A stretch of 64,000 nucleotides of DNA from a virus (lineage: Duplodnaviria > Caudoviricetes). The position numbers and the translations under genes were made by a program. The DNA is taken from IMG/VR virus record IMGVR_UViG_3300037722_001090; one strand, written 5' to 3'. Positions 272 through 58,779 of the stretch are shown here, one piece after another (the stretch's first letter is position 1; every line of letters begins with the position of its first letter). The notes under the pieces were generated by a model, which worked only from the letters and a program-made list of their open reading frames with translations, was not told the DNA's origin and did no database searches.

Positions 272-787
272 TTAACCATTATATCCTTTAAACCACTCAT
301 CAAGCTCAGGATCTTTATGTCTTTTAACTATAAACTCATAAAGCATAGGCTGATAAGGTTTATAACTTTTCTTGAAATAGCTCATTCCAGCTTCTTCAGG
401 TGTTCTATCTGCTTTTTTCTGATTACAATCATGACAAGCAGATGCTACATTGTCCCAGGTAGTCTTACCTCCCTTAGAGGAAGGAACTACGTGTTCAATT
501 TCAAGTTGTTTTATGGTCAATGATGCGCCACAATAAACACAGCGATAGCCATCTCTTTCAACCATATTTTCTTTGCTGAATCTTAGTCGCTTACCATATA
601 GCCCTTTAGCTAAATCAAACAGCTTTATCTTCTTTGGAACGAAGCTAGTCTCACGTATATTACTCAAGTCACCTTCGTAATCAACAAGAAAGGCTTTGCC
701 GTTTTCAATCATATGCTTAGCGCGTCTGGTTGAAACTTTATTGATGCATGCAAAGTCAGCGTTGAGTACTGAAACTGACCCTTTCAT
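272..787 (-). CDS. HNH endonuclease (McrA-like)
   Basis: RDGYRCVYCG...EHVVPSSKGGKTTWDNVASACHDCNQKK HNH motif. Confidence 0.9.
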   Translation of the reverse strand: MKGSVSVLNADFACINKVSTRRAKHMIENGKAFLVDYEGDLSNIRETSFVPKKIKLFDLAKGLYGKRLRFSKENMVERDGYRCVYCGASLTIKQLEIEHVVPSSKGGKTTWDNVASACHDCNQKKADRTPEEAGMSYFKKSYKPYQPMLYEFIVKRHKDPELDEWFKGYNG

Positions 788-821
788 AATACACACTAGA
801 CCTTTCTTTTTATTTTATTGT

Positions 822-899
822 TGGTGTGACCGAGGAGATTTGAACTCCCGTTCATTGATTCACAGTCAATGCGATTAGCCTAGCTATCTTACAGTCACC
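822..899 (-). tRNA. tRNA-His(GTG)
   Basis: Cloverleaf, loop CT-GTG-AA, extra 5' G, CCA encoded. Confidence 0.9.
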
Positions 900-903
900 A
901 CAT

Positions 904-986
904 TGCAGGTACATGGGGAATCGAACCCAAAAGTGAAGAGTTTTGGAGGCTCTTGCTAACCCAGCTAGCTTTACACTCACGCACCT
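904..986 (-). tRNA. tRNA-Trp(CCA), enlarged D region, no encoded CCA
   Basis: Loop CT-CCA-AA, T arm GGG-TTCGATT-CCC, acceptor AGGTGCG/TGTACCT, ends GCA. Confidence 0.75.
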
Positions 987-989
987 AAA

Positions 990-1400
990 ATCGAGCTAGT
1001 TTTGTACATCGGAAACTAGCAACCTTCTGCTTACTTATCGTGTAAGTGTCCCAGACAATAAACATACAAATAAAGGGCAGGGTTTTTACCTGCATCAATA
1101 GACAATCCTTTCTTAAGGGACTGACCCTCACTAAAGAAGGTTACATATTTATATGCTTATTTTCATATAATGAGTTCTCTCCACTCAATAAGTCAAGCCT
1201 TGAAGCTACATGCAAGTCGCTATGCTTCTTACATATACCTTACCGTCAATACGGAGTATGCCGGCTTTCACCACTTTAATCAATAATCCACTCTTGGCGT
1301 TCCTTCCAAGCGATATCTGTCAATTCAGATCTAAATGGTGCGCATTCATTTTTATGGTACTCTTAGAGGGCTCGTAAGCCAAAACCATGCTATTATTGTT
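990..1400 (-). ncRNA. candidate structured ncRNA
   Basis: About 400 nt with no credible ORF inside the tRNA cluster; serial hairpins (gctagttt/aaactagc, gcagg/cctgc, ccgt/acgg, cttgg/ccaag). Confidence 0.35.
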
Positions 1401-1423
1401 CAGCGTTTAGGAAATATTATTTT

Positions 1424-1469
1424 TGGTTGGGATAACTGGATTTGAACCAGTGACCCCCGAGTTATCAGC
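1424..1469 (-). pseudogene. 3' half of split tRNA-Ile(GAT)
   Basis: GCTGATAA loop, T arm ACTGG-TTCAAAT-CCAGT, TATCCCA-A-CCA; the matching 5' half lies at 2077-2096. Confidence 0.8.
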
Positions 1470-1472
1470 TTT

Positions 1473-1546
1473 TGGTACGCTCACTAAGAATTGAACTTAG
1501 ATGGTCCGGTTATCAGCCGAATCCTCTACCGTTGAGGTATGAGCGT
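1473..1546 (-). tRNA. tRNA-Ile(GAT)
   Basis: Cloverleaf, loop CT-GAT-AA, acceptor ACGCTCA/TGAGCGT, CCA. Confidence 0.88.
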
Positions 1547-1599
1547 ATAGTTTCGAATTTAGTTATTAACACTTATCACATATTGATAAGGAGTTAATA

Positions 1600-2085
1600 A
1601 TGAATTCATGCTTAAATTGTAGTAAAGAAACACTTAATCCAGTATTTTGTTCACGCTCATGTTCTGCTTCCTATGCTAATAAAATAAAGCCAAAACGTAA
1701 GAAAGAGGGTAAATGTGCAATCTGTAATGAAATAATCTCTGCTTCAAGGGCTTATTGTTCAGATATTTGTCGTGGTAAAGCTAGATCTATTGCCCGTAAA
1801 AATTCTAAAGCAAAAACGGGATATGAAAATATAAAAACCCACCGGCAAAAAGTCAAATTAAGAGCCGTACAATATAAAGGAGATAAATGTCAAATATGTA
1901 ATTATGATAAAACACCAGTTAATCTATCATTTCATCATTTAAATCCAGGTAAAAAAGATTTTAACCTTAGTGGTAATTATCACTTAACCTGGGAGACAAT
2001 ACAGGCTGAACTTGATAAATGTATTTTATTATGTATGAATTGTCATGGAGAAGTTCATGTAGGAATTATAAAAATTCCAGACTGA
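1600..2085 (+). CDS. HNH homing endonuclease with N-terminal Cys-rich zinc fingers
   Basis: CxxC...CSxxC repeats, then CQICNYDK...HHLNP...KCILLCMNCHGEVH; antisense to the tRNA cluster. Confidence 0.88.
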   Translation: MNSCLNCSKETLNPVFCSRSCSASYANKIKPKRKKEGKCAICNEIISASRAYCSDICRGKARSIARKNSKAKTGYENIKTHRQKVKLRAVQYKGDKCQICNYDKTPVNLSFHHLNPGKKDFNLSGNYHLTWETIQAELDKCILLCMNCHGEVHVGIIKIPD

Positions 2086-2096
2086 GCTATACCCCA
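2077..2096 (-). pseudogene. 5' half of split tRNA-Ile
   Basis: TGGGGTA-TA-GCTC-AGTCTGG; TGGGGTA pairs with TATCCCA of the 3' half at 1424-1469. Confidence 0.7.
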
Positions 2097-2102
2097 ATAA
2101 AC

Positions 2103-2170
2103 TGTGGAAGAACTGACGAGTCATCGTCAACAGGATATCACTTGCAACCCTACAGGAGGGAAATTCTTCC
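2103..2170 (-). tRNA. degenerate tRNA-like gene
   Basis: Perfect acceptor GGAAGAA/TTCTTCC, T-like arm TGACG/CGTCA, no canonical D/T loop consensus. Confidence 0.4.
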
Positions 2171-2218
2171 ATAACTTTTTTTTAACTGGAGCGGGTAATC
2201 GGGCTACCTGCTTTTTAT

Positions 2219-2293
2219 TAGAGCGGATGGTCGGGATCGAACCGACGACAAACAGTTTGGAAAACTGCAATTCTACCACTGAATTACACCCGC
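2219..2293 (-). tRNA. tRNA-Gly(TCC)
   Basis: Cloverleaf, loop TT-TCC-AA; ends CTA instead of CCA. Confidence 0.92.
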
Positions 2294-2308
2294 ATTGAAC
2301 TTTTTAAC

Positions 2309-2393
2309 TAGTGGGACGGATAGGACTCGAACCTATGAAACCCGAAGGTGGAAGATTTACAGTCTTCTGCAATTGCCACTATGCGACTGTCCC
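2309..2393 (-). tRNA. tRNA-Tyr(GTA)
   Basis: Cloverleaf with long variable arm, loop CT-GTA-AA; ends CTA. Confidence 0.92.
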
Positions 2394-2424
2394 ATGATGC
2401 CACCCATAGGTGGACTTTTATTTA

Positions 2425-2760
2425 TTGATTGGCCCCCTTCTGATCTAAAGAGCATTTAATCAAATCCGCTTGAACCAATCTTCTAGATATAATTGAGGAT
2501 TTTCTTTATAGACGTGAACTCATCCTCTGCAAACATGTCTTTCCGATAAGAGTGTAGGATTATTTTATCTTACGGGAGCTTACTCCGCTACTTCAATACC
2601 GCTAGGCTTCACCTGATTGCTTATGTCAGTCACGCCATCACCGCACATAAGGCGTGCGTCCCAGTTTCCTCTTATCTAGCAACTCAAGCCATAGACGCCT
2701 GATCCGTTCAGGTCAATTAAGAACACGATATCACAATCGGCCCTCTATGGGTTTCGTATT
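2425..2760 (-). ncRNA. candidate structured ncRNA
   Basis: About 330 nt ORF-free; helices GATAAGAG/CTCTTATC, CACGCC/GGCGTG, CCTGA/TCAGG, GGAG/CTCC. Confidence 0.4.
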
Positions 2761-2830: not shown

Positions 2831-2905
2831 TGTGGACCCTATCGGGCTCGAACCGATAACCTCCTAAGTGCAAGTCAGGTGCTCCCCCAGTTGAGCTAAG
2901 GGCCC
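2831..2905 (-). tRNA. tRNA-Ala(TGC)
   Basis: Cloverleaf, loop CT-TGC-AC, G3:T70 pair; CCA not encoded. Confidence 0.92.
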
Positions 2906-2916
2906 ATTGTAAAATT

Positions 2917-2990
2917 TGGTCGAAAGTGATGGACTTTAACCACCGGCCTCCTCCACCCAAGGAGGTGCCCCTTCACCGGGCCGACTTTCG
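2917..2990 (-). tRNA. atypical tRNA-Pro-like gene with 6-nt anticodon loop
   Basis: C1:G72, A73, CCA; stem CCTCC/GGAGG closes TTGGGT; T loop TTAAAGT. Confidence 0.65.
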
Positions 2991-2997
2991 AAATTTT

Positions 2998-3076
2998 TGG
3001 ATGCGGATGCTAGATTTGAACTAGCGATCTTTTGGTTATGAGCCAAATGGGATAGGCCAGACTTCCCCAATCCGCA
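2998..3076 (-). tRNA. tRNA-Met(CAT)
   Basis: Cloverleaf, loop CT-CAT-AA, CCA. Confidence 0.88.
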
Positions 3077-3102
3077 AAACCATGTAGTTTTTTTTATGAA
3101 AC

Positions 3103-3600
3103 TTAAGAAAGCAAGTTCATTGCTTTAACAAACTTTGAAGCTCCAATGATTTCAGCAGCATCATAAAAAGCATTTACTTCTTCCTGCGTTGCAATACGCA
3201 TATTCTCTTCAGTAAAATGAGGAAGATTATTGCCTACAGCACCACCAATATCGACAGCATTCTTGCCTTGATATACAGCAATAAGCTCTCCAATAGCATA
3301 GCTATGACTGTTAGTATTGTCAAGAAGAAGAATCATAGCACCTTTGGGTGCTCCAAGGACAGAAGGCAGCAAAATATCTTTGGATTTAGTAGTGATCTTT
3401 TCACCAATAAGTTCTCCTACAATACCAATAATATCTCTTTTGCCACCAGAGCAAAAGTTACCCGATCCATTGATAAGAGCTAGAAGCTTTTTAGCCTTCT
3501 CACTAGGCTCTTTCTCTTTTTCAGTATAAGCTTTTTCAAGAATAGCAGACAATTGCTTTGTTGCTTCTAGAGACATTGCTCTAAGTTCTTTCAGATCCAT
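3103..3600 (-). CDS. hypothetical protein
   Basis: ORF; start moved to MDLKEL, which has a purine-rich RBS. Confidence 0.7.
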   Translation of the reverse strand: MDLKELRAMSLEATKQLSAILEKAYTEKEKEPSEKAKKLLALINGSGNFCSGGKRDIIGIVGELIGEKITTKSKDILLPSVLGAPKGAMILLLDNTNSHSYAIGELIAVYQGKNAVDIGGAVGNNLPHFTEENMRIATQEEVNAFYDAAEIIGASKFVKAMNLLS

Positions 3601-4094: not shown

Positions 4095-4177
4095 TGGCTC
4101 TGAGAGTTGGATTTGAACCAACGACCTCGCTTTTTAAAGGCGGCCACCTACGCGCTCTACCACTGAGCTATCTCAGA
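4095..4177 (-). tRNA. atypical tRNA with about 10 extra nt in the anticodon arm (loop CTTTAAA, possible TTA anticodon)
   Basis: Perfect acceptor TCTGAGA/TCTCAGA, canonical D and T arms, G-CCA; anticodon arm distorted. Confidence 0.7.
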
Positions 4178-21401: not shown

Positions 21402-21531
21402 TGGGAGGGGGAGGTAGGAATCGAACCTACAATCTCAGCCTTTACATGTTCTCAACGCATGTGGGATACTACTAGGCACTCATGATTACCTATTTTCACC
21501 AGCTGGGCTTTACCAATTAAGCTACTCCCCC
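21402..21531 (-). tRNA. tRNA with about 60 nt inserted in the anticodon loop
   Basis: GGGGGAG/CTCCCCC acceptor, GCTT-AATTGGTA-AAGC D arm, GTAGG-TTCGATT-CCTAC T arm; CAGCT/GGCTG stem encloses about 60 nt. Confidence 0.75.
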
Positions 21532-31344: not shown

Positions 31345-31989
31345 TTATATGTTTTGTCGCTTGTGAGGTTGATTGTAATCTTCATGTGATAGGATTTTTC
31401 TTGGTTCAACGGATCTTCCTTCAATGCGTTTGCAGAGGAGTCTCCATTTTCTGCCAAGAGGGATACTGATGATGTCATGGTTGTGACGTAGGGCTTTCCC
31501 TCCGAGCTTGCCGTAACATTCACCTTCATTCATTTTTTGTATGATGGTGGCTGCCATTTCGACAATGTCGATGGGTATACCTTTTGTATCAATTTTGATA
31601 CTAGCAATTAACTTGTCTTCTTTTTTCTTTCTTTTTTTCGGTACTTTTTCTTCTGTAACATGAACAACTTCTGCTTCAACCGTTGGTACGATTAAATCTT
31701 CTGGATATAATTCTTTCCAGGCAGCGTCAATTACATCGAAACCTTTGTTTGTAATGAGCCAGTTGTTTCTTTTGATCTCTTCGAGGAGTCTCGCTACTTC
31801 AAGTGCACGAAATGCGGTGTGTAGTCTTGAGTATCCCCAGTTGAGAATTTTTTTGATTTTGTATTTTGTTATTGGTTCACTCATGTTGATACATAGAGCG
31901 AATACCATTGTTTCATCTCTTGAAGGAATGACACTTGTTGCTTCGAGAATGTGGAACTGTAGAACTTCTAGAGGTTTCATGTAAACCAC
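31345..31989 (-). CDS. winged-HTH protein fused to a ParE/RelE-like domain
   Basis: N-terminal wHTH-like segment ending W.IT.KG; C-terminal GKAL...IISIPLGRKWRLL...LSHEDYN. Confidence 0.6.
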   Translation of the reverse strand: MVYMKPLEVLQFHILEATSVIPSRDETMVFALCINMSEPITKYKIKKILNWGYSRLHTAFRALEVARLLEEIKRNNWLITNKGFDVIDAAWKELYPEDLIVPTVEAEVVHVTEEKVPKKRKKKEDKLIASIKIDTKGIPIDIVEMAATIIQKMNEGECYGKLGGKALRHNHDIISIPLGRKWRLLCKRIEGRSVEPRKILSHEDYNQPHKRQNI

Positions 31990-32496: not shown

Positions 32497-33066
32497 TTAC
32501 TTCTGCAGCTTGGCCGCTTCTTCCGCCTGCTTGCGGAGCGCGAATGCCGAGAGGCCGCCTTCTTCGCCGGTACCAGCGGTGGTCGACTCATCTTCGAGCC
32601 GGTTCGTGGTTTTGGCCTTGGGCTGCTTCAAACAGCTCAGGTCGATGTCTTCCGGGGCGATGAACGAGGGGAGCGTGGCAGCACTGCCTTTGAACCGATC
32701 GAGCAGCGTGCATTTGCTGTACTCCTGATACTCCACGACGTATTCGCCGCCGGTAGCCGTTTCGCCCCGGTATTCGCCGTGTTTTTCCGACTTGAACGCG
32801 AAGGCAATGCGGTCGCCCTCCAAAACCGACAGCCAGGCCTTGTCACGGGCATTTTCGAGCGATCCGTAGATCACGGCACGATTGCCCGAAGCCAGACCGA
32901 CGTTGACGATGAAGTCACTGCCGGATTTTTCGTTCCCACGGAGATCTGTTTTGCTGATCCGGGCGACTTCTTCGTCCAGGACCAAACAGATTTTCCCACG
33001 CGCTCCGGAGAGCAACTCGGTGAGTTCTTTGGTGAACTGTTTCTTTTCCATAACGTACTCCTTCAA
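32497..33066 (-). CDS. GC-rich hypothetical protein
   Basis: 189-aa ORF, terminator downstream at about 32458-32490. Confidence 0.75.
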   Translation of the reverse strand: MKEYVMEKKQFTKELTELLSGARGKICLVLDEEVARISKTDLRGNEKSGSDFIVNVGLASGNRAVIYGSLENARDKAWLSVLEGDRIAFAFKSEKHGEYRGETATGGEYVVEYQEYSKCTLLDRFKGSAATLPSFIAPEDIDLSCLKQPKAKTTNRLEDESTTAGTGEEGGLSAFALRKQAEEAAKLQK

Positions 33067-33084
33067 AAAGTGTAAAAAGGTTCA

Positions 33085-33174
33085 AGAATAGCACGTACTC
33101 ACACACCCATAGTGTAAGTCAGTAGCTCTTTTTTCTCATAGATAGCACAGGACACGCACTCTCGTAGATAGCAC
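33085..33174 (-). promoter_or_regulatory. cluster of GTGCTAT motifs upstream of a gene
   Basis: GTGCTATTCT at 33085-94 and GTGCTATCTA at 33139-48 and 33165-74. Confidence 0.45.
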
Positions 33175-33384
33175 GAATCTACGCATACGTACACTGTATT
33201 AGATATATAGACCTTAGGCCCTTCGTGTGATACCAGGCCCGTCGTAAGTGTAGAAGCGTCAAGGCTTCAATAGCTATACTCTGCTTGCTGGCTCCAGGTC
33301 AACGGTGGAGCACCATACCGTACAGCTCGCATTATATAGCTAATAAAAAAAGGGAGCCCGTTAGGACCCCCTTTTAATTACATA

Positions 33385-33654
33385 CTAATACCTACGCCAA
33401 TAACAACCCTCACCTATTGATATTCCATGAGACGTTGGCCCACAATAATGACCATCAGTAATAGACGAAGCTCTACTCCCTGTAGGAAGAGGATCCTTAC
33501 CAACTAAGAACTTATTCATTCTTAGTCTACCAATCTCCTTATCAATAGCGTTCATTCTATTCTTCACCTTCTGTCTATCTTCTTTACTGATGGGACGACC
33601 AAGTCTTAATTCAAGATCAGCACTCTCCATAAACAACGCATCTACTCTGTGCAT
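33385..33654 (-). CDS. hypothetical protein
   Basis: ORF directly downstream of the RNAP gene, terminator after it. Confidence 0.6.
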   Translation of the reverse strand: MHRVDALFMESADLELRLGRPISKEDRQKVKNRMNAIDKEIGRLRMNKFLVGKDPLPTGSRASSITDGHYCGPTSHGISIGEGCYWRRY

Positions 33655-33710: not shown

Positions 33711-36700
33711 TTAGAGATCGCCTTCACCCTGAGCCATGATACGATCCATGTACTCAGTAGCCTCACGCTCGATACGTTTACGGATATTCTCCGCCACAGC
33801 AATCTCAACATCCTTAATGTACGGATTGTCAGGATTCACACGCTTAGCAAGAGGAATGATGAACTTATCCGCATCGAACAGCCAGAACAAGCTGCCAGGC
33901 TTACTGGTAATCTTATCCGCACCAGTATCCCTGTCCTGACCAGACCAAGTGCCGAAAGACTGAACACCAATCGACAACATGAGCTGCTCCTTAAACTCAT
34001 CCATGAAGAAGCGATAATCAGGCTTACCGAAATACTTCTTACAAGCAAACTCAGCAATGATATCAATGTAACCGCGATAATCATTGGCAAGTGCAGCCCA
34101 GGCAATACGACGAGCCCTCTTGTCCACAATGAGAGACTTGTCATCCTGCAGAATCCTGGAATGCAGAGAATACCCCTCAATGATGGTACCATAAAGATTA
34201 CCACCATTAATGAGCAGGCTAGTAGCATTCAATACGAACTGAGGAGTCCAAGGAAGCTCAGCTTTGAGCTGCCTGAATTCACTATGAAGTGCTACCTTCT
34301 TTGCCCATTCAGTACGACAAAGATTACGCATATCAGTACTGTCCGAATGACGAGTAGTACAACTCACATCACGCAGAACATTAAGGACATGGCGGTAAGG
34401 GTTATATTCACTGCACTTGATATCCTGCAACTTACGGATAATCGCCTTCATGCAAAGATGCGGAATACCCTTAACGCTACTGTTCCCTCCATCCTTACGG
34501 AGAGCGCAGTAATCCTGAGGAGCAGAACGCAGCGGCATAACACGGCCATTAACACCATAAAGGCGAGTAATGGTTGCTGCAGCATCTTCCTCAGCAGAAA
34601 TGTCATGATGCTTCATGCCATCAATTGCAAGCTGGACAATCTCACCCATATGCATGATCTGAGCAGGAGTGAGAGGAGTACCATTCCACCAATTCTCGAA
34701 GATGATCTGCCGAGACAGGTTATCCAGAGAGCCAGTATCAATAGCACTCTGAGCAATAGCCAAGTAAGCCCTATAGGTCTGAGTGACAAATGCTTCTTCA
34801 CTCATAAGGCCTTTGGCTTTAGCCTTCTTCTCCTTAACAGGAGGGAGAGGACGCTCAGTTACAGGGAATGCGATGTCAGGATGAGGGAATACAATACAAG
34901 TATCCCCATCGACATCACCGAACATAGTCCAGAGAGCCCTTGCGCTAAGCTCAATGCAATCCGTAGTACCATTCAACTTGTGATGATGAAACTCCATGAA
35001 GTTACCATCACCAACAACCGGATTACGACCAATGTTCCATTTAGTATCGGGCCCAAGAAGCTTCGTGAACTTCTTCTTGCTGGGACCGTTGAACATATAG
35101 ACCTTCTCATTAGTCTCCAGAAAATGCTTATACTCGAGCAGGTCAAGCTCTTCATTAACCTCCAAGTAGAAGGCCAAATCAGACAGCCGCACCTTATACA
35201 CATTCTGGATCAAGTAAGTCCAAATACGAGCCATCATAACAGTAATGCGACTCGTATACATAGGAACACGCCAATCACCAAGCTCTTCGTCATATTTAGT
35301 GAAGAGGAAAGCCTTAAGTGGCTCACTAATAGCATCGTCCATAGTGGCTTCAGCATCCGACTTCAAGATACTGAGATAGCCACTAGCCTTACCTGCCAAT
35401 GCATCAACTACGATCTGCGCATTAGGAATCGCAGTCTCCACAATACGAGACACAAGCTCACTGTCCAAACGAACAGACTGAACACCAAGCGACGACTTTC
35501 CATCACTAACCTTGATTGCAACAATACGCAATGCAGGTTTCTCAGGAGTAATGGGAATAAGCACGATATCACCATGCTTGAGCCGGCCCTTCTGCGTTTT
35601 AAAGTTACCAAGACCCATGATAGCATCCTGATCCTCAAGATTGAAGCCATACTCTTCAACCTTCTCCTCATACCTGTTCACATGAAACATACACTTGCCC
35701 TTGAAGCTAGGCATCACATCACCAACCTTGAATTGGTAGATAGAAGGATTGGTCACGGCCAACTCAGCCATTACCTTAACATCAGCCTCATCAAATACAT
35801 GATAGCTCCTCGCCTGAGCATTTCCGTTAACACGCTCCTCTTTAGGAGGCTTAGGCACAGTCACTTCCTTGCCAGCAGTAACTGCAGCATTATACTCCTC
35901 CATCTGCTTAGCAAACCTCTTAAGCTCACTGACAGGAGTGTACCACATGCTAAGACAAGTAAGCATGTTACCATCGTTAAGAGGGTGTCCGCCCCAACCA
36001 GTCATATGTTCGGTGCGAGGAGTGTGACCAACAATCTCATCATTAATAACGCGCACACGAAGATACTGAGCATTCTCCGTACTTGCGATCTGATAAGGAT
36101 TGGGCGTCATGAACGTACCAGTAGGCTTAAACGGATTGTCATGATTACGAGGATCGTCACCCATCAACTCTGTCCAATCCTCAAGATATGCCTTACCAAG
36201 CAAAGGTTCACTCTTCTTAGCATTACCAAGTACGTGCTTGGCTTCACTAGCGGCTACATCCTGCATACGCTTGAAGATCTTAACCCTGTTGTTAGAGTCG
36301 TGCTCTTCAATAGACATAGGGATAACCTTGCCTCCCTTGCACCACTCATAGAATGGCGAGTTCGAGGCAATCTCAATCATGGCATCAGTACCATTAATGA
36401 CAAAGTCCGTACCGATAACCACCTCCTTTTGTACCGGATCACCATGCTCATCAATGCCTGCTTGCGTTTCAGTGATCTCAATCACCGCACCAGTATAGAC
36501 AATGCCCTTAACTTTCTCAAGCGTAGGGCTAAGTCCATGCAACCTGATCTTCGGATCATTCTCCGAGACAGGGTTAACTGCACCACTATACTCTTTAGGC
36601 TTAGTGGCGATAAGGCTGAGCTTCCTGTTCTTCATGGCATCTCCCTTGTTGTGGGCCTCCAGTTTGTCTTTGAACAGTTGCACCTGCTCTTTAACGGTGC

Positions 36701-37322
36701 CCTGTTTGACGAAGGCCGAAATTTCAATCTCTTTGAATCCAGCCAATTTGAGAATCTGCTGGTCCGACTTACCCCTGATGAGTGCTTCGGTTGCGCGACG
36801 GGCCTTTCTTCCCTGAGCAACAAACATGTCCTGAATGATCCTGTTCATATCTGCCAATTTGTCATTGCGCTCCACCTTGGAACGGACATCTTTGAGCTGG
36901 AACTCATAAATAGAGTTAACCAACTCCATGCCTTCGAGCTTTCTGAACTCAGACCGATGCATACCGATCTTATAGGCAATGAGACGTAAGTCGTCATCGC
37001 CACCCTCTTTGTTGAGGATGTTGATCAGCGTGGTCTTGTTCTTGAACCCTTCCGGATCCTCGAATTCCTCAGGCAGCAGAGAACGGCTCATGAACTCATA
37101 AATCACGATGCGCAGACGATCAGCAGTTGCCGCATTGTACGTGGTGTACAAAGGAACGCCGAGGTCCTTCGCGATCTCCTTGAGGGCAGTGATACCCTTT
37201 TCATCAAGACCCTTCTTCTTGATGATGACTTTAATCTGCGTCTGGTTCATGTGTACCTCCTTGTGGTTAGATTTCTTGCCATTAACGCCATTGCCATTGG
37301 TGTTACCGTTGTGCTGTGTCAT
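33711..37322 (-). CDS. single-subunit two-barrel (DPBB) RNA polymerase, YonO/cellular-RdRP-like
   Basis: GRNP...IEL...GDVDGD (34902-34919), matching beta' R.P...ADFDGD; plus NDG, AQAR, FKGK, QLAIDGMKH in RdRP order; GGAGG RBS before MTQHNG. Confidence 0.85.
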   Translation of the reverse strand: MTQHNGNTNGNGVNGKKSNHKEVHMNQTQIKVIIKKKGLDEKGITALKEIAKDLGVPLYTTYNAATADRLRIVIYEFMSRSLLPEEFEDPEGFKNKTTLINILNKEGGDDDLRLIAYKIGMHRSEFRKLEGMELVNSIYEFQLKDVRSKVERNDKLADMNRIIQDMFVAQGRKARRATEALIRGKSDQQILKLAGFKEIEISAFVKQGTVKEQVQLFKDKLEAHNKGDAMKNRKLSLIATKPKEYSGAVNPVSENDPKIRLHGLSPTLEKVKGIVYTGAVIEITETQAGIDEHGDPVQKEVVIGTDFVINGTDAMIEIASNSPFYEWCKGGKVIPMSIEEHDSNNRVKIFKRMQDVAASEAKHVLGNAKKSEPLLGKAYLEDWTELMGDDPRNHDNPFKPTGTFMTPNPYQIASTENAQYLRVRVINDEIVGHTPRTEHMTGWGGHPLNDGNMLTCLSMWYTPVSELKRFAKQMEEYNAAVTAGKEVTVPKPPKEERVNGNAQARSYHVFDEADVKVMAELAVTNPSIYQFKVGDVMPSFKGKCMFHVNRYEEKVEEYGFNLEDQDAIMGLGNFKTQKGRLKHGDIVLIPITPEKPALRIVAIKVSDGKSSLGVQSVRLDSELVSRIVETAIPNAQIVVDALAGKASGYLSILKSDAEATMDDAISEPLKAFLFTKYDEELGDWRVPMYTSRITVMMARIWTYLIQNVYKVRLSDLAFYLEVNEELDLLEYKHFLETNEKVYMFNGPSKKKFTKLLGPDTKWNIGRNPVVGDGNFMEFHHHKLNGTTDCIELSARALWTMFGDVDGDTCIVFPHPDIAFPVTERPLPPVKEKKAKAKGLMSEEAFVTQTYRAYLAIAQSAIDTGSLDNLSRQIIFENWWNGTPLTPAQIMHMGEIVQLAIDGMKHHDISAEEDAAATITRLYGVNGRVMPLRSAPQDYCALRKDGGNSSVKGIPHLCMKAIIRKLQDIKCSEYNPYRHVLNVLRDVSCTTRHSDSTDMRNLCRTEWAKKVALHSEFRQLKAELPWTPQFVLNATSLLINGGNLYGTIIEGYSLHSRILQDDKSLIVDKRARRIAWAALANDYRGYIDIIAEFACKKYFGKPDYRFFMDEFKEQLMLSIGVQSFGTWSGQDRDTGADKITSKPGSLFWLFDADKFIIPLAKRVNPDNPYIKDVEIAVAENIRKRIEREATEYMDRIMAQGEGDL

Positions 37323-37401
37323 AGACACCTCCAAAGAATGAATATGCGATATGCATACTACGTTAAAAAAAAGGGCAGACCCGAAGGCCCACCCTTTAAT
37401 T

Positions 37402-37617
37402 TTACTTCTTCAGCATTTGTCTTTGCAGATCAATACCGATCTGTGCTGCAAGATCGAAGTATTGGATCATCCTAGCATACCTATGCATATGCCTTTCATA
37501 TCCTTCCTTGTCGCCAATCTGAAGCGACAGCAATGCTGCTTCCAGATGAATCCTGGCATTCCTATGGTACCAGATGCCAATTCTAATGTACCGCCTCTTC
37601 TTCTTATGGTTCTTCAT
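37402..37617 (-). CDS. small basic protein
   Basis: AAGGAG RBS, terminator downstream at 37364-37397. Confidence 0.6.
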   Translation of the reverse strand: MKNHKKKRRYIRIGIWYHRNARIHLEAALLSLQIGDKEGYERHMHRYARMIQYFDLAAQIGIDLQRQMLKK

Positions 37618-37867
37618 GACAAGCTCCTTTCTCTTCATCAAGGCGAGTATAAATCTCAATCACTGTCAATCTAGACTGACCAGTGATAGCCATAGCGTAC
37701 AATACACTATAGCCGTTTTCATAACACTGCTCCACACTCATTTGCATAAGACCTCCTTTCATAATGCGAATAAGCCCCTGACTACACTTAGGACACAGAT
37801 CGTCCGCGACATCATACGTATTAAGTTCCATCACACTATAACACGTACTGCAAACAAACTTAGCCAT
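37604..37867 (-). CDS. zinc-ribbon protein
   Basis: AGGAG RBS; CSTC...CPKC. Confidence 0.65.
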   Translation of the reverse strand: MAKFVCSTCYSVMELNTYDVADDLCPKCSQGLIRIMKGGLMQMSVEQCYENGYSVLYAMAITGQSRLTVIEIYTRLDEEKGACHEEP

Positions 37868-38030
37868 CACACCACTCCTTTCTTCCCCTACACCCACTAT
37901 AAAACCTACACTTGTTTCTTTTGCACATACGCTTATTCCTCCTCTTCCTCTTCGTGGCAGCACTCACAGGTAAAGCCAGTAATCTCACCAATACACCAGT
38001 ATTTATCTTCTTCACACAGTTAGTTAATTG

Positions 38031-38174
38031 TTAGATCCAGCTGTTAAAGGTAGCAGTAGCAGCACTACTACCCATTTTAAGCGACAAGTAACGCACAGCT
38101 TGCACATTACTAATGGCTCCAGCTTTGAATAGCAACTGGACACGGAAGATACGACGGCCTGCATGCTTGCCCAT
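38031..38174 (-). CDS. 47-aa hypothetical protein
   Basis: AAGGAG RBS, MGKHAGRRIFRVQ... Confidence 0.55.
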   Translation of the reverse strand: MGKHAGRRIFRVQLLFKAGAISNVQAVRYLSLKMGSSAATATFNSWI

Positions 38175-38325
38175 ACTCACACTCCTTTCAGTTCAGGTAC
38201 AAATACAATAGCCATCCAGAACGACACCCACACTAATGCAACAATAGTCATGGCTCTTCTCCTTAGATATATGTGCATAATTGCACCTAATAAAAAAAGG
38301 GGCTAAAGAACAGCCCCTTTAATTA

Positions 38326-38583
38326 CTACCCGATCATTCTAAGTCCTCTAGCGTGAGGAACAATCTTGACAGTCGCACTTTCATACTTGCCAAGGACCTC
38401 ATACAGCTCCTCCAGATGATCGAAATCACCCTTAAGAGTACGATTAATTACCTTTTTGCAAGCCCCATCCTTAGCAAGGCTTCTCCAAGAGGAAGTTATC
38501 CTTCTTTCCAGTTGCCCAATCTTCTGATCAAGGATATTGAGCTCGTCTTCAACAACCATTTTGTTCGCTGCGATAACCATCAT
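38326..38583 (-). CDS. hypothetical protein
   Basis: GGAGG RBS, own terminator at 38291-38320. Confidence 0.65.
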   Translation of the reverse strand: MMVIAANKMVVEDELNILDQKIGQLERRITSSWRSLAKDGACKKVINRTLKGDFDHLEELYEVLGKYESATVKIVPHARGLRMIG

Positions 38584-38663
38584 GTTACACCTCCAAGGAA
38601 TTTGATATCACCGATATGGCGATATACCTATTAAAAAAAAAGGGACCCGAAGGCCCCTTGATT

Positions 38664-38873
38664 TTATATAACTCTTAGCATCATCACATAAGTGCCTCCA
38701 ATTACATTATAGTTTTTAATAACTATATTTACCTCTTCGCATAACTTTAATTCCCTTTTGACCTTTTCGCCTAATATAATACCATCATATTTAGCACCAA
38801 AATCTACAACAACATAAGCACCAGTCTGCACAACAACACCTCTCTTTACAGCACCTAACATAACTACCTCCAA
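38664..38873 (-). CDS. hypothetical protein (OB-like)
   Basis: Own terminator at 38633-38660; beta-rich, VDFGAKYDGII resembles the S1 motif. Confidence 0.5.
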   Translation of the reverse strand: MEVVMLGAVKRGVVVQTGAYVVVDFGAKYDGIILGEKVKRELKLCEEVNIVIKNYNVIGGTYVMMLRVI

Positions 38874-39176
38874 GTATAAGAATTAAACTTACGCACACAT
38901 ACTATATATGTACATATCTAATAAAAAAGGGCCTATTGTAGCGCCCCACATTATTACTTGTACTGAGTATCGCGATAATGCTTCCAAGTACGAAGATCAT
39001 GATTATAATTATGATTTACGCGCAGACGACGCACACGCACTTGAAGTGCCTCTTTACGTAAATTCCAACCACCACATACTGGACAAGTATGAGCCATAAT
39101 AGTTCTCCTTGTTATGGTACATTATTGTACCTAATAAAAAAGCGGGGCAATATGCACCCCGCCTCTATATAACCCC

Positions 39177-39350
39177 CTATGCCATGCATCTACCAGCATA
39201 GAGCTGCATGAAGACATCTCTCGGCATGAGATCTCCGCCTATGTATGTGCCCATATCTTGCACTATGCATGCCTCAGGTAGGAAGGCCTCTGCAGCCTCC
39301 CTATCGCATCTCTCGATAGCTTCTTCAATGGACCTACAGATGATAGTCAT
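39177..39350 (-). CDS. 57-aa hypothetical protein
   Basis: AAGGAG RBS, own terminator at 39134-39163. Confidence 0.55.
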   Translation of the reverse strand: MTIICRSIEEAIERCDREAAEAFLPEACIVQDMGTYIGGDLMPRDVFMQLYAGRCMA

Positions 39351-39575
39351 GGTATCTCTCCTTTAGTTAATGGTTAATAGTTAGATATATAGGCATAGTG
39401 CGACAAGCACCATACCCACAACGAACGGGTACAACTCTTGGGCCATGATACGCCCCTTCCCAACCTTACTCTTACCCTGATACATACGCATAGTACACCT
39501 CCACTATATAGGCATGATTGCCTAATAAAAAAAACGGGGGTTATTAGCCCCCGCCTCTATATAAGCCCCTTAGTA

Positions 39576-39854: not shown

Positions 39855-40270
39855 GATGATTCTCCCTGTTAATTGTTAGAAGTCGACCCCGGGGTTGCAA
39901 ATAGTCCATACCGACCTACATCTATATACCTACAGTCCTTTAATCACTCCAGCCCATTTCAATCTCATATCTAGGCTTTTTAGATCATCACTTCACTCCA
40001 GCCCATTTCAAATCCACTATAGACTTAAGCTTTTTACTCCACTCCTTTACACGAAACCTTTAATAAGACTTTTCCTTATTAAAACTTTCCCCATATTCGA
40101 TGCCGGGGTCTGTGACAAAAATCTTTTCCATTTTCCCCTATACGTTTCCCTCATATAGGACCAAAGTCATTTTGATTTCATATTTGACCTTTCTAATATG
40201 CACACTTAGCCTATTTCCCTTATTAACATACTGTACATAGATATGTACTTATTTTTTTTAGGAGAACATA

Positions 40271-46417: not shown

Positions 46418-48247
46418 ATGAGATTAGACCATCCCAGATTTAAAGATCCTCAATGCCAAGCATGTATCGCTAGAGCTAAGAAGAAATATGGTAAGTTTGC
46501 TATACCATGTAGTGGTATAACTATCGATAAGGACGTTGCTTTTGCTATTAAGAATGGTATGTCTGAAGAAGACGCTAGATATATGTACGACCCTTCTTAT
46601 TTCTTTAAAGAAAGTTATAGATCTGAAGCCAGAGAGTATCAGATACCAATATTAAGGTGTACTAGCCGAAACTTAGTAGCAAGACAATGTAGGCAGACAG
46701 GTAAGACACTAGCTTTTGTAAATAAGATCCTACATTATGTAGGTACTAATGATGATAAGACAGTTCTTATTATTACTCCGCAAGAGAAGCAGATTAAAAA
46801 AATCTGGGATGAGTATATTTTCCGTGATGGTATTGACAAAAATAAAAAATTAAAAGACTCAGTAGTTAGTAAAAGAGAGAAACCATACTATCAAGTAACT
46901 TTTGATAATGGATCTAGAATCTTGCTAATGATCGCCGGCCCAGGTGTCCGTGGACAGACTGCTGACTGGATTTATATTGATGAAGCTGCAATAGTACCAA
47001 ATGATACACTAAAAGATATTTTAATGACAATTGCATCTAGAGGTGATGATGCTACTATCCTTCTAACCTCCACACCTAAAGGTAGAGGTAATGTGTTTTA
47101 TGATGCATGTAAAGAAGATCCATCATTTAATGAGTATCACGTATCAATTGACGATGTACCTGAAATGCATGGACAGATATCTAGATTTAAGAAGCTATTA
47201 GGTGAAACAGGATATATACAAGAAGCACTTGCTGAATTTCCTGCTACCTCAGGTGGTCCATTTAACTTAAATGGTATTACCTTAGCTAAAGATGAGTACG
47301 AATATGAAGACTGCTTTAGAGAACCGGGGTTAATTTACTTTGGTGGCGTAGACTGGAACGGACCAGGTATTGGTACGTATTTCTACATAATTGCATTTGA
47401 TCCTAATCGTACAACACTTAAAATAGTAGACAAGCAAGTAGTTGCTTCTGCTAACTGGAATAGTACAGTAGCAAAGAATTGTTTAATTGAACTTAATAGG
47501 AAATGGGAACCAAAGCACTGGATGTGTGACTACGGATATTCTCAATCACTAATTGAAGAGATTAGACGATACTCAATGCAAGTACAGGCACCAAAAGGAC
47601 ACCCAGATCTAGTAATTAAGCATATTATAGAGACTGTTGCCTTCGGATCAACACTATTAGTAGAGGATCCATTTACTAAAGAAGAAGTTAAGAAAACAGC
47701 AAGGTCATTCATAGTATCACAGGTTGCAAGACTATTTGAACCAAGAGGTGCTGAAGGTGAAGAATGGGTACCATTACGCTTCTCAGCTAGTGATAGTGAG
47801 CTAATTAAATCACTAGAAGTATATAAGTTGTTGCAGATTACTACTACAGGACAAGATAAGTACGGAATAGACCCAAAAGATGGAGTAGAAGACCATGCAG
47901 TTGACGCCTTTATTCTTGCTTGTTATGGTGTAATAAAGTACTATAATGAGTTATTTAAAAGAATAATATATGCATCTGTAGGCTTTAATGCAGAGTCTAT
48001 TTTAGTGCCTCCTCCAGAACCTGAACATGATAATAAAATCATAGCAGGAGGAATCATTTTATTAACAGATAATAGTCCAGAACTGATATACTTGGATGAT
48101 AGTAAAATTAAAGATCCAACTGAAATTAGAGAAATAATTATCTCTAGAACATTTTCAAAGAGCATGAAAAAAAGGTGCTATACCCAAGGAAACTTTTCTG
48201 GTATTATGAAGGGTAGAGGCGGATTAGTTAGAAGAACTAATTTCTAA
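46418..48247 (+). CDS. terL: terminase large subunit
   Basis: CRQTGKT Walker A, PGVRGQTAD.IYIDEAA Walker B, STPKG, GVDWN nuclease, DHAVDA. Confidence 0.93.
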   Translation: MRLDHPRFKDPQCQACIARAKKKYGKFAIPCSGITIDKDVAFAIKNGMSEEDARYMYDPSYFFKESYRSEAREYQIPILRCTSRNLVARQCRQTGKTLAFVNKILHYVGTNDDKTVLIITPQEKQIKKIWDEYIFRDGIDKNKKLKDSVVSKREKPYYQVTFDNGSRILLMIAGPGVRGQTADWIYIDEAAIVPNDTLKDILMTIASRGDDATILLTSTPKGRGNVFYDACKEDPSFNEYHVSIDDVPEMHGQISRFKKLLGETGYIQEALAEFPATSGGPFNLNGITLAKDEYEYEDCFREPGLIYFGGVDWNGPGIGTYFYIIAFDPNRTTLKIVDKQVVASANWNSTVAKNCLIELNRKWEPKHWMCDYGYSQSLIEEIRRYSMQVQAPKGHPDLVIKHIIETVAFGSTLLVEDPFTKEEVKKTARSFIVSQVARLFEPRGAEGEEWVPLRFSASDSELIKSLEVYKLLQITTTGQDKYGIDPKDGVEDHAVDAFILACYGVIKYYNELFKRIIYASVGFNAESILVPPPEPEHDNKIIAGGIILLTDNSPELIYLDDSKIKDPTEIREIIISRTFSKSMKKRCYTQGNFSGIMKGRGGLVRRTNF

Positions 48248-57573: not shown

Positions 57574-58779
57574 ATGAATTTAGCAGCAAAACTACTACAG
57601 TTTGCAAAAGCTAATAAACTGATTGACTCAGAGACAAACATGAAGGGCGACATTAAACTTCGTGACATTCTTAATAAAGAAGATCTGTCACGTCTTGTCC
57701 CAATCGCAATCTCTGAAGTTGTAAGAGAAGCATCTGAATTTGAGCTTCTAGCTACCAAACTGTTTAAGAAAATTAACCAAAAAGAAGGTATCTATATTCA
57801 GCTACCTGCAATCGGCGCAATGGATACCATTGAAGAAGTTGCACCTGGCGCTGAGTACGGCACCGAAGAAATCACCCTTGGTGGTGGACAGGCTATTCGT
57901 GTTGACATCCGTAAATACGGTATCAAGCTTGCTCTTACTGAGGAAATGGTTGAACAGTCCCAGTGGGATGTTATCGGTGAATGGCTCAAAGCAGCTGGTA
58001 AGGCTTTCGCCCGTAAGAAAAACTGGATTCAGTTCCAGATGTTTGAAAGACAGGGACTAACCCTTGTTGACAACAAAAACCCTAACCATACTGTTCTTGG
58101 TCGTCCTCTTTCTGGTAAAGATGGCGTGGGTAACTTCAACTATTCGTTCACTGCAGAAGACTTCTTTGATATCTATGCTGCAATGCTTCAAGAAGGATTC
58201 GCTCCTGATGTAGTTGTTGTTCATCCTATGACCTGGGCAATCTGGGTTAAAGACCCTATCCTTCGTGCGTTTGCTATGACCAATGCTTCCGGTCCTATGT
58301 TTAACCAGTATGAAATGGGTAGTGTTAATCGTGAGCAGTACTTCGGTGGTCTTGGTAAATCTACCGGTGGAGCTGAACTAGGTGAAGATATGGCACCTGA
58401 CTATAAAGGTCGCCCTATTCTTCCTCCTTACCTTAATGTTCCTCTGAGCATTCTGGTATCGAAACAAGTTCCTTTTGATCCAGTTAATAAGCTTACCAGC
58501 ATGTATTTTGTAAATACTGAAAATGCTGGAGCTATTGTACAGGGCGAGGAAATCAACCATCACTCTTGGGCAGATCCCGAGCGTGACATCCAGATGATCA
58601 AACTTCGTGAGAAGTATGGTATCTCGATGCTTAACGAAGGTCGCGGAGTTGGAGTTGTTAAAAACATTCCTATCGTACCTAACCGTTGGGTTGATGGTCA
58701 GGTTCAGCCTACAATGGCAGTAGATGCTAACTCGAAGATGTTCCCTGAGGACATGACTGCTGCTGACGCAATGGTTTAA
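57574..58779 (+). CDS. major capsid protein (HK97-type)
   Basis: EVAPGAEY, IRKYGIKLALTEEM...QWDVI, PD.VVVHP.TW; strong codon bias; strong terminator follows. Confidence 0.9.
   Translation: MNLAAKLLQFAKANKLIDSETNMKGDIKLRDILNKEDLSRLVPIAISEVVREASEFELLATKLFKKINQKEGIYIQLPAIGAMDTIEEVAPGAEYGTEEITLGGGQAIRVDIRKYGIKLALTEEMVEQSQWDVIGEWLKAAGKAFARKKNWIQFQMFERQGLTLVDNKNPNHTVLGRPLSGKDGVGNFNYSFTAEDFFDIYAAMLQEGFAPDVVVVHPMTWAIWVKDPILRAFAMTNASGPMFNQYEMGSVNREQYFGGLGKSTGGAELGEDMAPDYKGRPILPPYLNVPLSILVSKQVPFDPVNKLTSMYFVNTENAGAIVQGEEINHHSWADPERDIQMIKLREKYGISMLNEGRGVGVVKNIPIVPNRWVDGQVQPTMAVDANSKMFPEDMTAADAMV

Follow-up and report, generated by a model that had tools for sequence, protein, structure and literature searches.

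Within the 64,000-nucleotide stretch of Caudoviricetes DNA from IMG/VR record IMGVR_UViG_3300037722_001090 (the whole of which is called the window here), the gene at 33,711-37,322 on the minus strand probably encodes a catalytically intact single-chain two-barrel RNA polymerase (RNAP) that is made early and does not belong to the virion. Its predicted structure contains both double-psi beta-barrels (DPBBs), the catalytic residues are in place, and the gene is the last of a run of small terminator-hairpin cassettes. We propose that the enzyme would use a DNA template and may recognise the motif TGCTAWTCTYG as its promoter. An earlier sequence-only reading had suggested a single-chain two-barrel RNAP related to YonO and to RNA-dependent RNA polymerases (RdRPs), and near-full-length matches of the structural model to QDE-1, RDR2, YonO and gp66 now bear out this relationship. 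Residues are numbered according to the translation P0001, which begins at a TTG codon; numbers in the protein that starts at ATG are lower by four.

Predicted fold and domain architecture

The AlphaFold2 model covers residues 240-1207, was computed with the family alignment as input and reached a pLDDT of 88.7 and a pTM of 0.83. Foldseek comparison with the PDB placed QDE-1 (E = 2.4e-11 over 997 columns) and RDR2 (1e-9) at the top, followed by P23-45 gp64 (1.4e-8), P74-26 gp62 (1.9e-8) and phi14:2 gp66 (1.8e-6), and the beta-prime/Rpb1 large subunits of multisubunit RNAPs ranked after these single-chain two-barrel enzymes. Throughout the PDB, BFVD, AlphaFold DB and ESM Atlas, matches extending over about 900-1000 columns came only from single-chain two-barrel RNAPs and then from multisubunit large subunits. 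BFVD delivered phage two-barrel polymerases, the AlphaFold DB clusters RdRPs and uncharacterised proteins, and the Swiss-Prot models RDRs as well as YonO (E = 1.3e-9 over YonO residues 92-838, nearly the whole of that protein). By shape, the ESM Atlas yielded a cyanobacterial YonO-like cluster (TM-scores 0.52/0.67) and a cluster of fused Rpb2_6 and Rpb1_2 domains, the latter aligned over both barrels (model residues 30-749).

The two barrels follow each other in one chain, first the beta-like barrel B and then the beta-prime-like barrel A. When barrel B was folded alone (residues 445-640; pLDDT 87), ranks 1-4 of the VIA matches were occupied by the B-barrel regions of gp66, gp62, RDR2 and QDE-1 (residues 698-787 of QDE-1), and classical DPBB folds came later, namely CDC48-N, VAT-N, designed DPBBs, formate-dehydrogenase barrels and expansins. 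Foldseek gave no match at E < 1 for barrel B alone, and a hidden Markov model (HMM) profile of this barrel had no match among PDB sequences. For barrel A, RNAP large subunits and isolated DPBB domains were matched by VIA to model residues 474-592. Absence of two DPBB domains had been named beforehand as the result that would speak against a polymerase; both barrels were found, barrel B by VIA on the separate fold.

Two long helices follow barrel A. They are paired by hhalign with gp64 residues 369-421, including the A-V-D-x-x-K motif, and are regarded as a candidate bridge-helix region. The mostly helical C-terminal region is of the QDE-1/RDR kind: its alignment with the model spans model residues 29-947 for QDE-1 and 33-929 for RDR2, whereas the shorter gp62 ends at model residue 752.

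The N-terminal region (residues 1-245) is variable across the family. Apart from polymerases, residues 35-102 matched only P0026 and P0029, which are Rho_N repeat proteins (E = 1e-18), and the predicted segment fits helix-extension-helix repeats that bind nucleic acids. Two relatives carry an N-terminal cpYpsA SLOG domain, P0005 in place of the Rho_N-like repeats and P0003 ahead of them. This domain is of the circularly permuted YpsA type and occupies residues 5-147 of P0003 and the N-terminus of P0005; on contig L001 it lies at 2895-3340. SPbeta, the prophage that encodes YonO, has a separate YpsA-like gene, yoqJ. The association of SLOG domains with such polymerases may be a recurring one.

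Catalytic residues and the sequence family

No match to the polymerase protein was found in Pfam, PHROG, the PDB sequences or INPHARED, and tblastn and megablast searches of 50,697 phage records were likewise empty. When 1.84 billion representatives were searched exhaustively with HMMER, 33 homologues emerged at E < 1e-3 (21 of them below 1e-10), all of which are unnamed metagenomic proteins, mostly of 900-1360 aa. A profile search of a word-indexed set of 5.8 billion proteins returned the same three close homologues and nothing more. No relative was confirmed by pattern scans in IMG/VR, among JGI metagenome contigs or among GTDB genome contigs; our 25-sequence family alignment, whose members share 20-47% identity with the query, diverges too strongly for such a scan.

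The invariant columns of this alignment are D454, G455, Q507, R509, K545, K579, L730, P772, D807, D809, G810, D811, G868, I904 and K908. The motifs that had been picked out from the letters, in the order DG, Q.R, K(G), R.P...DxDGD and AID..K, coincide with these columns, well beyond what chance would produce. Since the catalytic residue set is invariant among homologues of such low identity, selection on catalysis is indicated.

Eight residues are universal in two-barrel polymerases, including Rpb2 D837, K979 and K987 and QDE-1 D709, R738 and K743 (PMC2919709). For seven of them the family has an invariant candidate (D454, R509, K545, P772, D807, D809 and D811); the remaining one, R770, occurs in 21 of the 25 sequences. 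R770-N-P772, an R-x-P some 35 residues ahead of the Asp triad, is the equivalent of Rpb1 R446/P448. Residue by residue, D454, R509 and K545, which follow one another in this order within barrel B, would correspond to the aspartate and the two basic residues of barrel B. In most family members 8-10 residues separate the positions of R509 and K545, which is the spacing of Rpb2 K979 and K987; the sub-family of the window protein has an insertion of about 28 residues between them.

The DVDGD form of the catalytic loop had been noted as a departure from DFDGD/DLDGD. The loop itself is real, but its valine marks only the closest sub-family: of the 25 members compared, 8 have V at the middle position, 8 have F, 4 have Y and 5 have another residue. 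Some members read NADFDGD or NADYDGD, like bacterial beta-prime.

Sequence comparison with known enzymes gave few and weak links. Against 177,635 PDB sequences the family profile ranked the beta-prime subunits of AR9 and phiKZ first to third (E = 0.07-0.4), aligned at RNP...DxDGD with the loops DYDGD and DFDGD. Using hhalign, P23-45 gp64 was aligned from DxDGD to the A-V-D-x-x-K helix (E = 7e-4, probability 26%) and gp96 on RNPV.G.G...DFDGDT (E = 2.9e-3). In these alignments the links coincide precisely with the catalytic motifs. The 25-sequence profile showed no similarity to YonO in hhalign (E = 0.68, probability 0.1%), and the Pfam RdRP family PF05183 matched neither the protein at E <= 1 nor any of the 25 members at E <= 0.01. 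Pfam Rpb1 and Rpb2 domains were not detected, which distinguishes the protein from the AR9 and phiKZ non-virion RNAPs and from Rpb2_6+Rpb1_2 fusions, and other conserved modules of cellular RNAPs were not recognisable.

In another study 23 families were described (PMC10770324); GDVDGD does not occur in those of its supplements that were searched. The nearest feature neighbours in the ESM Atlas are phage clusters with Pfam RdRP (PF05183), one of them also with Rho_N, and the architecture of the polymerase is therefore not unique; we treat these neighbours as a lead only. The suggestion of a new lineage thus holds at the level of sequence, given the lack of Pfam, PHROG, PDB-sequence and INPHARED matches, but it is tempered by the RdRP-bearing neighbours. 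What is new about the polymerase is its sequence family, which is unannotated; the kind of enzyme is known.

Genome context and hairpin cassettes

In the window, which belongs to a large phage genome, two arms diverge from a point near 39.9-40.3 kb. Terminase (46418-48247) and major capsid protein (57574-58779) are encoded on the rightward arm; on the leftward arm are genes for Ro60/TROVE, the RlaP nucleotidyltransferase, a CCA-adding enzyme and TerC as well as 14 tRNA genes. On this leftward arm the polymerase gene is preceded by about 2.5 kb of small ORFs (36-119 aa) only, in line with its earlier description as the first large gene of the arm. Its site, 9 kb from the terminase gene and on the opposite strand, is outside the structural and tail modules, and its product does not form a segment of a giant virion protein.

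Six terminator-hairpin mini-cassettes were recognised in the window (37343-39560, minus strand), the last of which belongs to the polymerase gene. Strong intrinsic terminators are located between the divergence point and this gene at 39558, 39163, 38659, 38320 and 37397, and a further terminator-like hairpin with a T-run is found near 38950. The order of elements, which precedes five upstream mini-genes, is the T-run of a terminator, TTATTAG, a short hairpin, about 10 nt, and a ribosome-binding site with ATG. The polymerase cassette carries AACGTAG where the others have TTATTAG, and its hairpin sits 10 nt ahead of the ribosome-binding site. The hairpins have stems of 4-8 bp whose sequence varies from copy to copy; the A/T-rich loop is kept. 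This layout recalls the hairpin promoters of the N4 virion RNAP, although the hairpins could instead be stabilisers at the 5' end of the mRNA. A scan for sigma-70 consensus sites found promoter-like sequences no more frequently than in shuffled sequences.

The cassettes recur in relatives. Contig L011 has four TTATTAG-hairpin cassettes (440-2500, plus strand), all upstream of the polymerase gene and the last directly ahead of it. L001 is syntenic with the window, and the same type of hairpin sequence stands ahead of a gene pair that ends in the polymerase. Both contigs stop 2.5-2.9 kb ahead of the polymerase gene, and the arms of the window diverge at 39855-40270, which suggests a physical genome end near the divergence point. 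In the window's own phage, however, contigs continue through this point.

The candidate promoter motif

A second class of signals is found on the other side of the polymerase gene. The motif is TGCTAWTCTYG, or TGCTATTCT followed by YG. On the minus strand TGCTATTCT is found 14 times in exact form, always between 3539 and 33093 and hence downstream of the gene; none occurs in the 7 kb upstream of 33093, and the plus strand has one copy. Several copies are placed 30-45 nt ahead of a ribosome-binding site and ATG, and one directly after a terminator. Two near-copies reading TGCTATCTAYGAG are located around 33140-33170. In the late arm no recurrent motif stood out.

L001 contains three copies of TGCTATTCT (7339, 11753 and 11800), where 0.38 would be expected, and L011 three copies of the variant TGCTAATCT (7421, 8036 and 10683); in both contigs all copies are downstream of the polymerase gene. 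In the three phages the motif is on the transcribed strand, and copies sometimes form tandem pairs 34-47 nt apart. Thus, both classes of signals keep their position in L001 and L011, although the polymerases are just 42-47% identical. Neither class was found in the more distant relative L012.

Comparison with known polymerases and proposed role

A parallel is offered by Thermus phage P23-45. There, a virion RNAP fused to the tape-measure protein reads AT-rich pre-early promoters, and the pre-early gene product gp64, a non-virion two-barrel RNAP, reads a second class of promoters on early and middle genes (PMC10770324). The layout of that genome is like that of the window: its arms diverge, small pre-early genes are followed by gp64, and terminase, capsid and the tape-measure virion RNAP lie opposite. 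The proteins themselves differ. gp64 and P74-26 gp62 (PDB 8F72, 8F5M) have 616 aa, whereas the window protein has 1203, with a Rho_N-like extension at the N-terminus and a large C-terminal part resembling that of QDE-1; identity is at most 13%. Host and habitat are also unrelated, as the window phage comes from sediment and soil metagenomes.

YonO of the SPbeta prophage (UniProt O31945; PMC5467207) is, like the window protein, a phage-encoded single chain with an Asp triad. It transcribes the late genes of a temperate phage, whereas the window gene sits in an early cassette, and its large genome is apparently of the lytic type. QDE-1 and plant RDR2 (PDB 7Y7T, 2J7N, 7W84) are RdRPs of eukaryotic RNA interference (RNAi) and share 11-12% identity with the window protein, but the window gene is viral, has a transcription-type context and lacks a PF05183 match. 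By analogy, the protein would function as gp64 and YonO do; its fold is closest to that of QDE-1 and the RDRs.

On this basis, the early-made enzyme would act as a DNA-dependent transcriptase, as gp64 and YonO do, and would assume transcription of the remaining leftward (early/middle) arm, with the TGCTAWTCTYG sites as its most likely starting points. The Rho_N-like repeats at its N-terminus probably add nucleic-acid binding. The cassettes from which the polymerase gene itself is expressed would probably be read by another enzyme, either a polymerase injected with the DNA or that of the host.

Several observations weigh against this interpretation. The choice of template cannot be read from sequence, and the best structural matches include the RNA-dependent enzymes QDE-1 and RDR2. 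Whole-chain TM-scores are just 0.4-0.5, identity to any known enzyme does not exceed 13%, and 4 of the 25 aligned members lack the R.P arginine. With regard to the motif, about 5 of the 14 TGCTATTCT copies lie within ORFs, and the lack of copies in the 7 kb upstream has a chance probability of about 6% in this window alone. Moreover, TGCTATTCT fits an extended -10 element (TG-n-TA---T) that the host RNAP could read, which makes the host enzyme a serious alternative as reader of TGCTAWTCTYG. Finally, the supposed injected polymerase would be encoded outside the window.

A more far-reaching scheme can be put forward as a tentative idea only. The window enzyme might read TGCTAWTCTYG unaided, and a second two-barrel polymerase, delivered through the tail, might read the hairpin cassettes. 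Together they would form an early-to-middle cascade that is independent of the host and made up wholly of single-chain two-barrel enzymes, with the variable N-terminal modules (Rho_N-type repeats, SLOG ligand-sensor) tuning promoter use or coupling transcription to a nucleotide signal.

Among other roles, service in phage replication has to be considered. It is unlikely, even though the enzyme appears to be made early, some phage RNAPs do serve replication, and no primase was recognised among the scanned genes of the window. The window covers just a portion of the genome, which measures about 205 kb, and replication genes may sit elsewhere; in addition, 14 dispersed motif copies ahead of genes suit promoters better than origins.

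That the enzyme is an RdRP of the QDE-1/RDR type, copying phage or host RNAs such as Y-RNA-like or tRNA-like transcripts, is quite improbable. QDE-1 and plant RDR2 are indeed the top whole-chain structural matches, and with Ro60/TROVE, RlaP and a CCA-adding enzyme the phage invests in RNA biology. But the template is not determined by the fold, and QDE-1 uses DNA too (PMC9508822). The characterised phage members, namely YonO (PMC5467207), gp64 and gp96 (PMC10770324) and gp66, are all DNA-dependent, and the position of the gene and the promoter-like motif downstream of it suit a transcriptase.

A polymerase packaged in the virion and injected to start infection, like gp66 of crAss-like phages or the N4 virion RNAP, would have the fold in common with gp66 and gp96. 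We consider this very unlikely, as the gene is located in the early arm behind an early-type cassette and far from the terminase and capsid genes. phi14:2 gp66 (PDB 6VR4) is, in contrast, a virion protein of 2180 aa encoded among structural genes, whereas the window protein is an early product. Furthermore, the full clamp and the C-terminal regions are kept in the window protein, whereas the injected gp96 lacks them (PMC10770324). That extreme divergence from known enzymes reflects a polymerase-derived protein with a structural or regulatory role and no polymerisation is hardly credible, with the whole catalytic residue set invariant across the homologues.

Gene boundaries, codon usage and neighbouring features

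The program-called ORF extends over 33711..37334 on the minus strand and comprises 1207 aa from a TTG. A GGAGG ribosome-binding site at 37328-37332 is placed 5 nt ahead of the ATG at 37322, and the 1203-aa product that starts there was found letter for letter on at least five metagenomic contigs, the longest of 205,327 bp, where it had been called by independent gene callers. All contigs with the identical product come from sediment or soil metagenomes. The extent of the gene as first proposed, 33711-37322, is therefore correct. A second in-frame ATG (residue 29 of P0001; 37248-37262, minus strand) has its own GGAGG 5 nt upstream, and a shorter isoform that lacks the Asn/Gly-rich first 24 residues is possible.

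On the opposite strand, an ORF of 942 aa (34161-36989, plus strand) was rejected as a gene. It is a codon-aligned antisense shadow of the polymerase gene and is fragmented in the relative L001. It exists because the polymerase gene almost avoids TTA, CTA and TCA, which occur once, never and never in its 1204 codons. The terminase gene has 17, 12 and 12 of these among 610 codons, and the late genes use all three freely. This strong split between early and late genes may be linked to the phage's own tRNAs.

The coordinates of the gene, its domains and motifs and the adjacent signals are given in Table 1.

Table 1. Features of the polymerase gene and its surroundings in the window.
Feature	Position	Strand	Remarks
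RNA polymerase gene	33711..37322	-	ATG start, 1203 codons and stop
N-terminal Rho_N / helix-extension-helix-like repeats, residues 35-102	37029..37232	-	weak Rho_N match, E = 0.012
Double-psi beta-barrel B (beta/Rpb2-like), residues ~445-610	35505..36002	-	invariant D454, R509, K545, K579
DG, residues 454-455	35970-35975	-	invariant in 25 homologues
Q.R, residues 507-509	35808-35816	-	Q507 and R509 invariant
K545 in KGK	35700-35702	-	invariant
K579	35598-35600	-	invariant
Double-psi beta-barrel A (beta-prime/Rpb1-like), residues ~716-829	34848..35189	-	holds R770-N-P772 and the metal-binding loop
R-N-P, residues 770-772	35019-35027	-	P772 invariant; R770 in 21/25
Catalytic loop D807-V-D809-G-D811	34902-34916	-	D, D, G, D invariant in 25 homologues
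Two long helices after barrel A, residues 846-908	34611..34799	-	model residues 607-644 and 651-666; invariant G868, I904, K908
AIDGMK, residues 903-908	within 34611-34667	-	I904 and K908 invariant
C-terminal mostly helical region, residues 909-1207	33714..34610	-	QDE-1/RDR-like
Upstream cassette of the polymerase gene	37343..37397	-	intrinsic terminator 37370-37397, then 5-bp hairpin 37343-37357
ORF of 89 aa co-transcribed with the polymerase gene	33385-33654	-	no family
Terminator closing the polymerase cassette	33348-33375	-	strong
First TGCTATTCT(Y)G copy	33085..33093	-	33 nt upstream of the ATG of the next gene; candidate promoter
TGCTATTCTTG site	within 33000-33150		

The 89-aa ORF behind the polymerase gene was dismissed as a candidate cofactor, as it belongs to no family and has no detectable homologue in L001. 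The gap of 247 nt after the cassette terminator folds no better than shuffled sequences (z = -0.29), and no non-coding RNA is claimed there. Elsewhere on the leftward arm, a protein of 214 aa (31345-31989, minus strand) has a C-terminal ParE-like toxin domain (E = 1.7e-19). The Rfam tRNA model matches 126 nt at 21406-21531 on the minus strand in full (51 bits); this locus was not reported by ARAGORN and may represent a tRNA gene into which about 55 nt are inserted. Two further tRNA-like genes in the ARAGORN output, at 2917-2990 and 4095-4177, have abnormal anticodon loops.

Implications

Among relatives of the cellular transcription enzyme, single-chain two-barrel RNAPs are the simplest, and to our knowledge only few have been studied, namely YonO, gp64 and gp96 of P23-45, gp66 of crAss-like phages and QDE-1 with the RDRs. 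Because searches of Pfam, PHROGs and PDB sequences miss the family described here, phages that carry it are now read as having no polymerase of their own. The position of the gene behind a pre-early run extends the P23-45 layout beyond Thermus phages. With two conserved and positionally separate classes of signals and a protein of 1203 residues, promoter specificity becomes testable in vitro. Finally, the full-length likeness to QDE-1 and the RDRs is a data point on the phage origin of the RNAi polymerases of eukaryotes.

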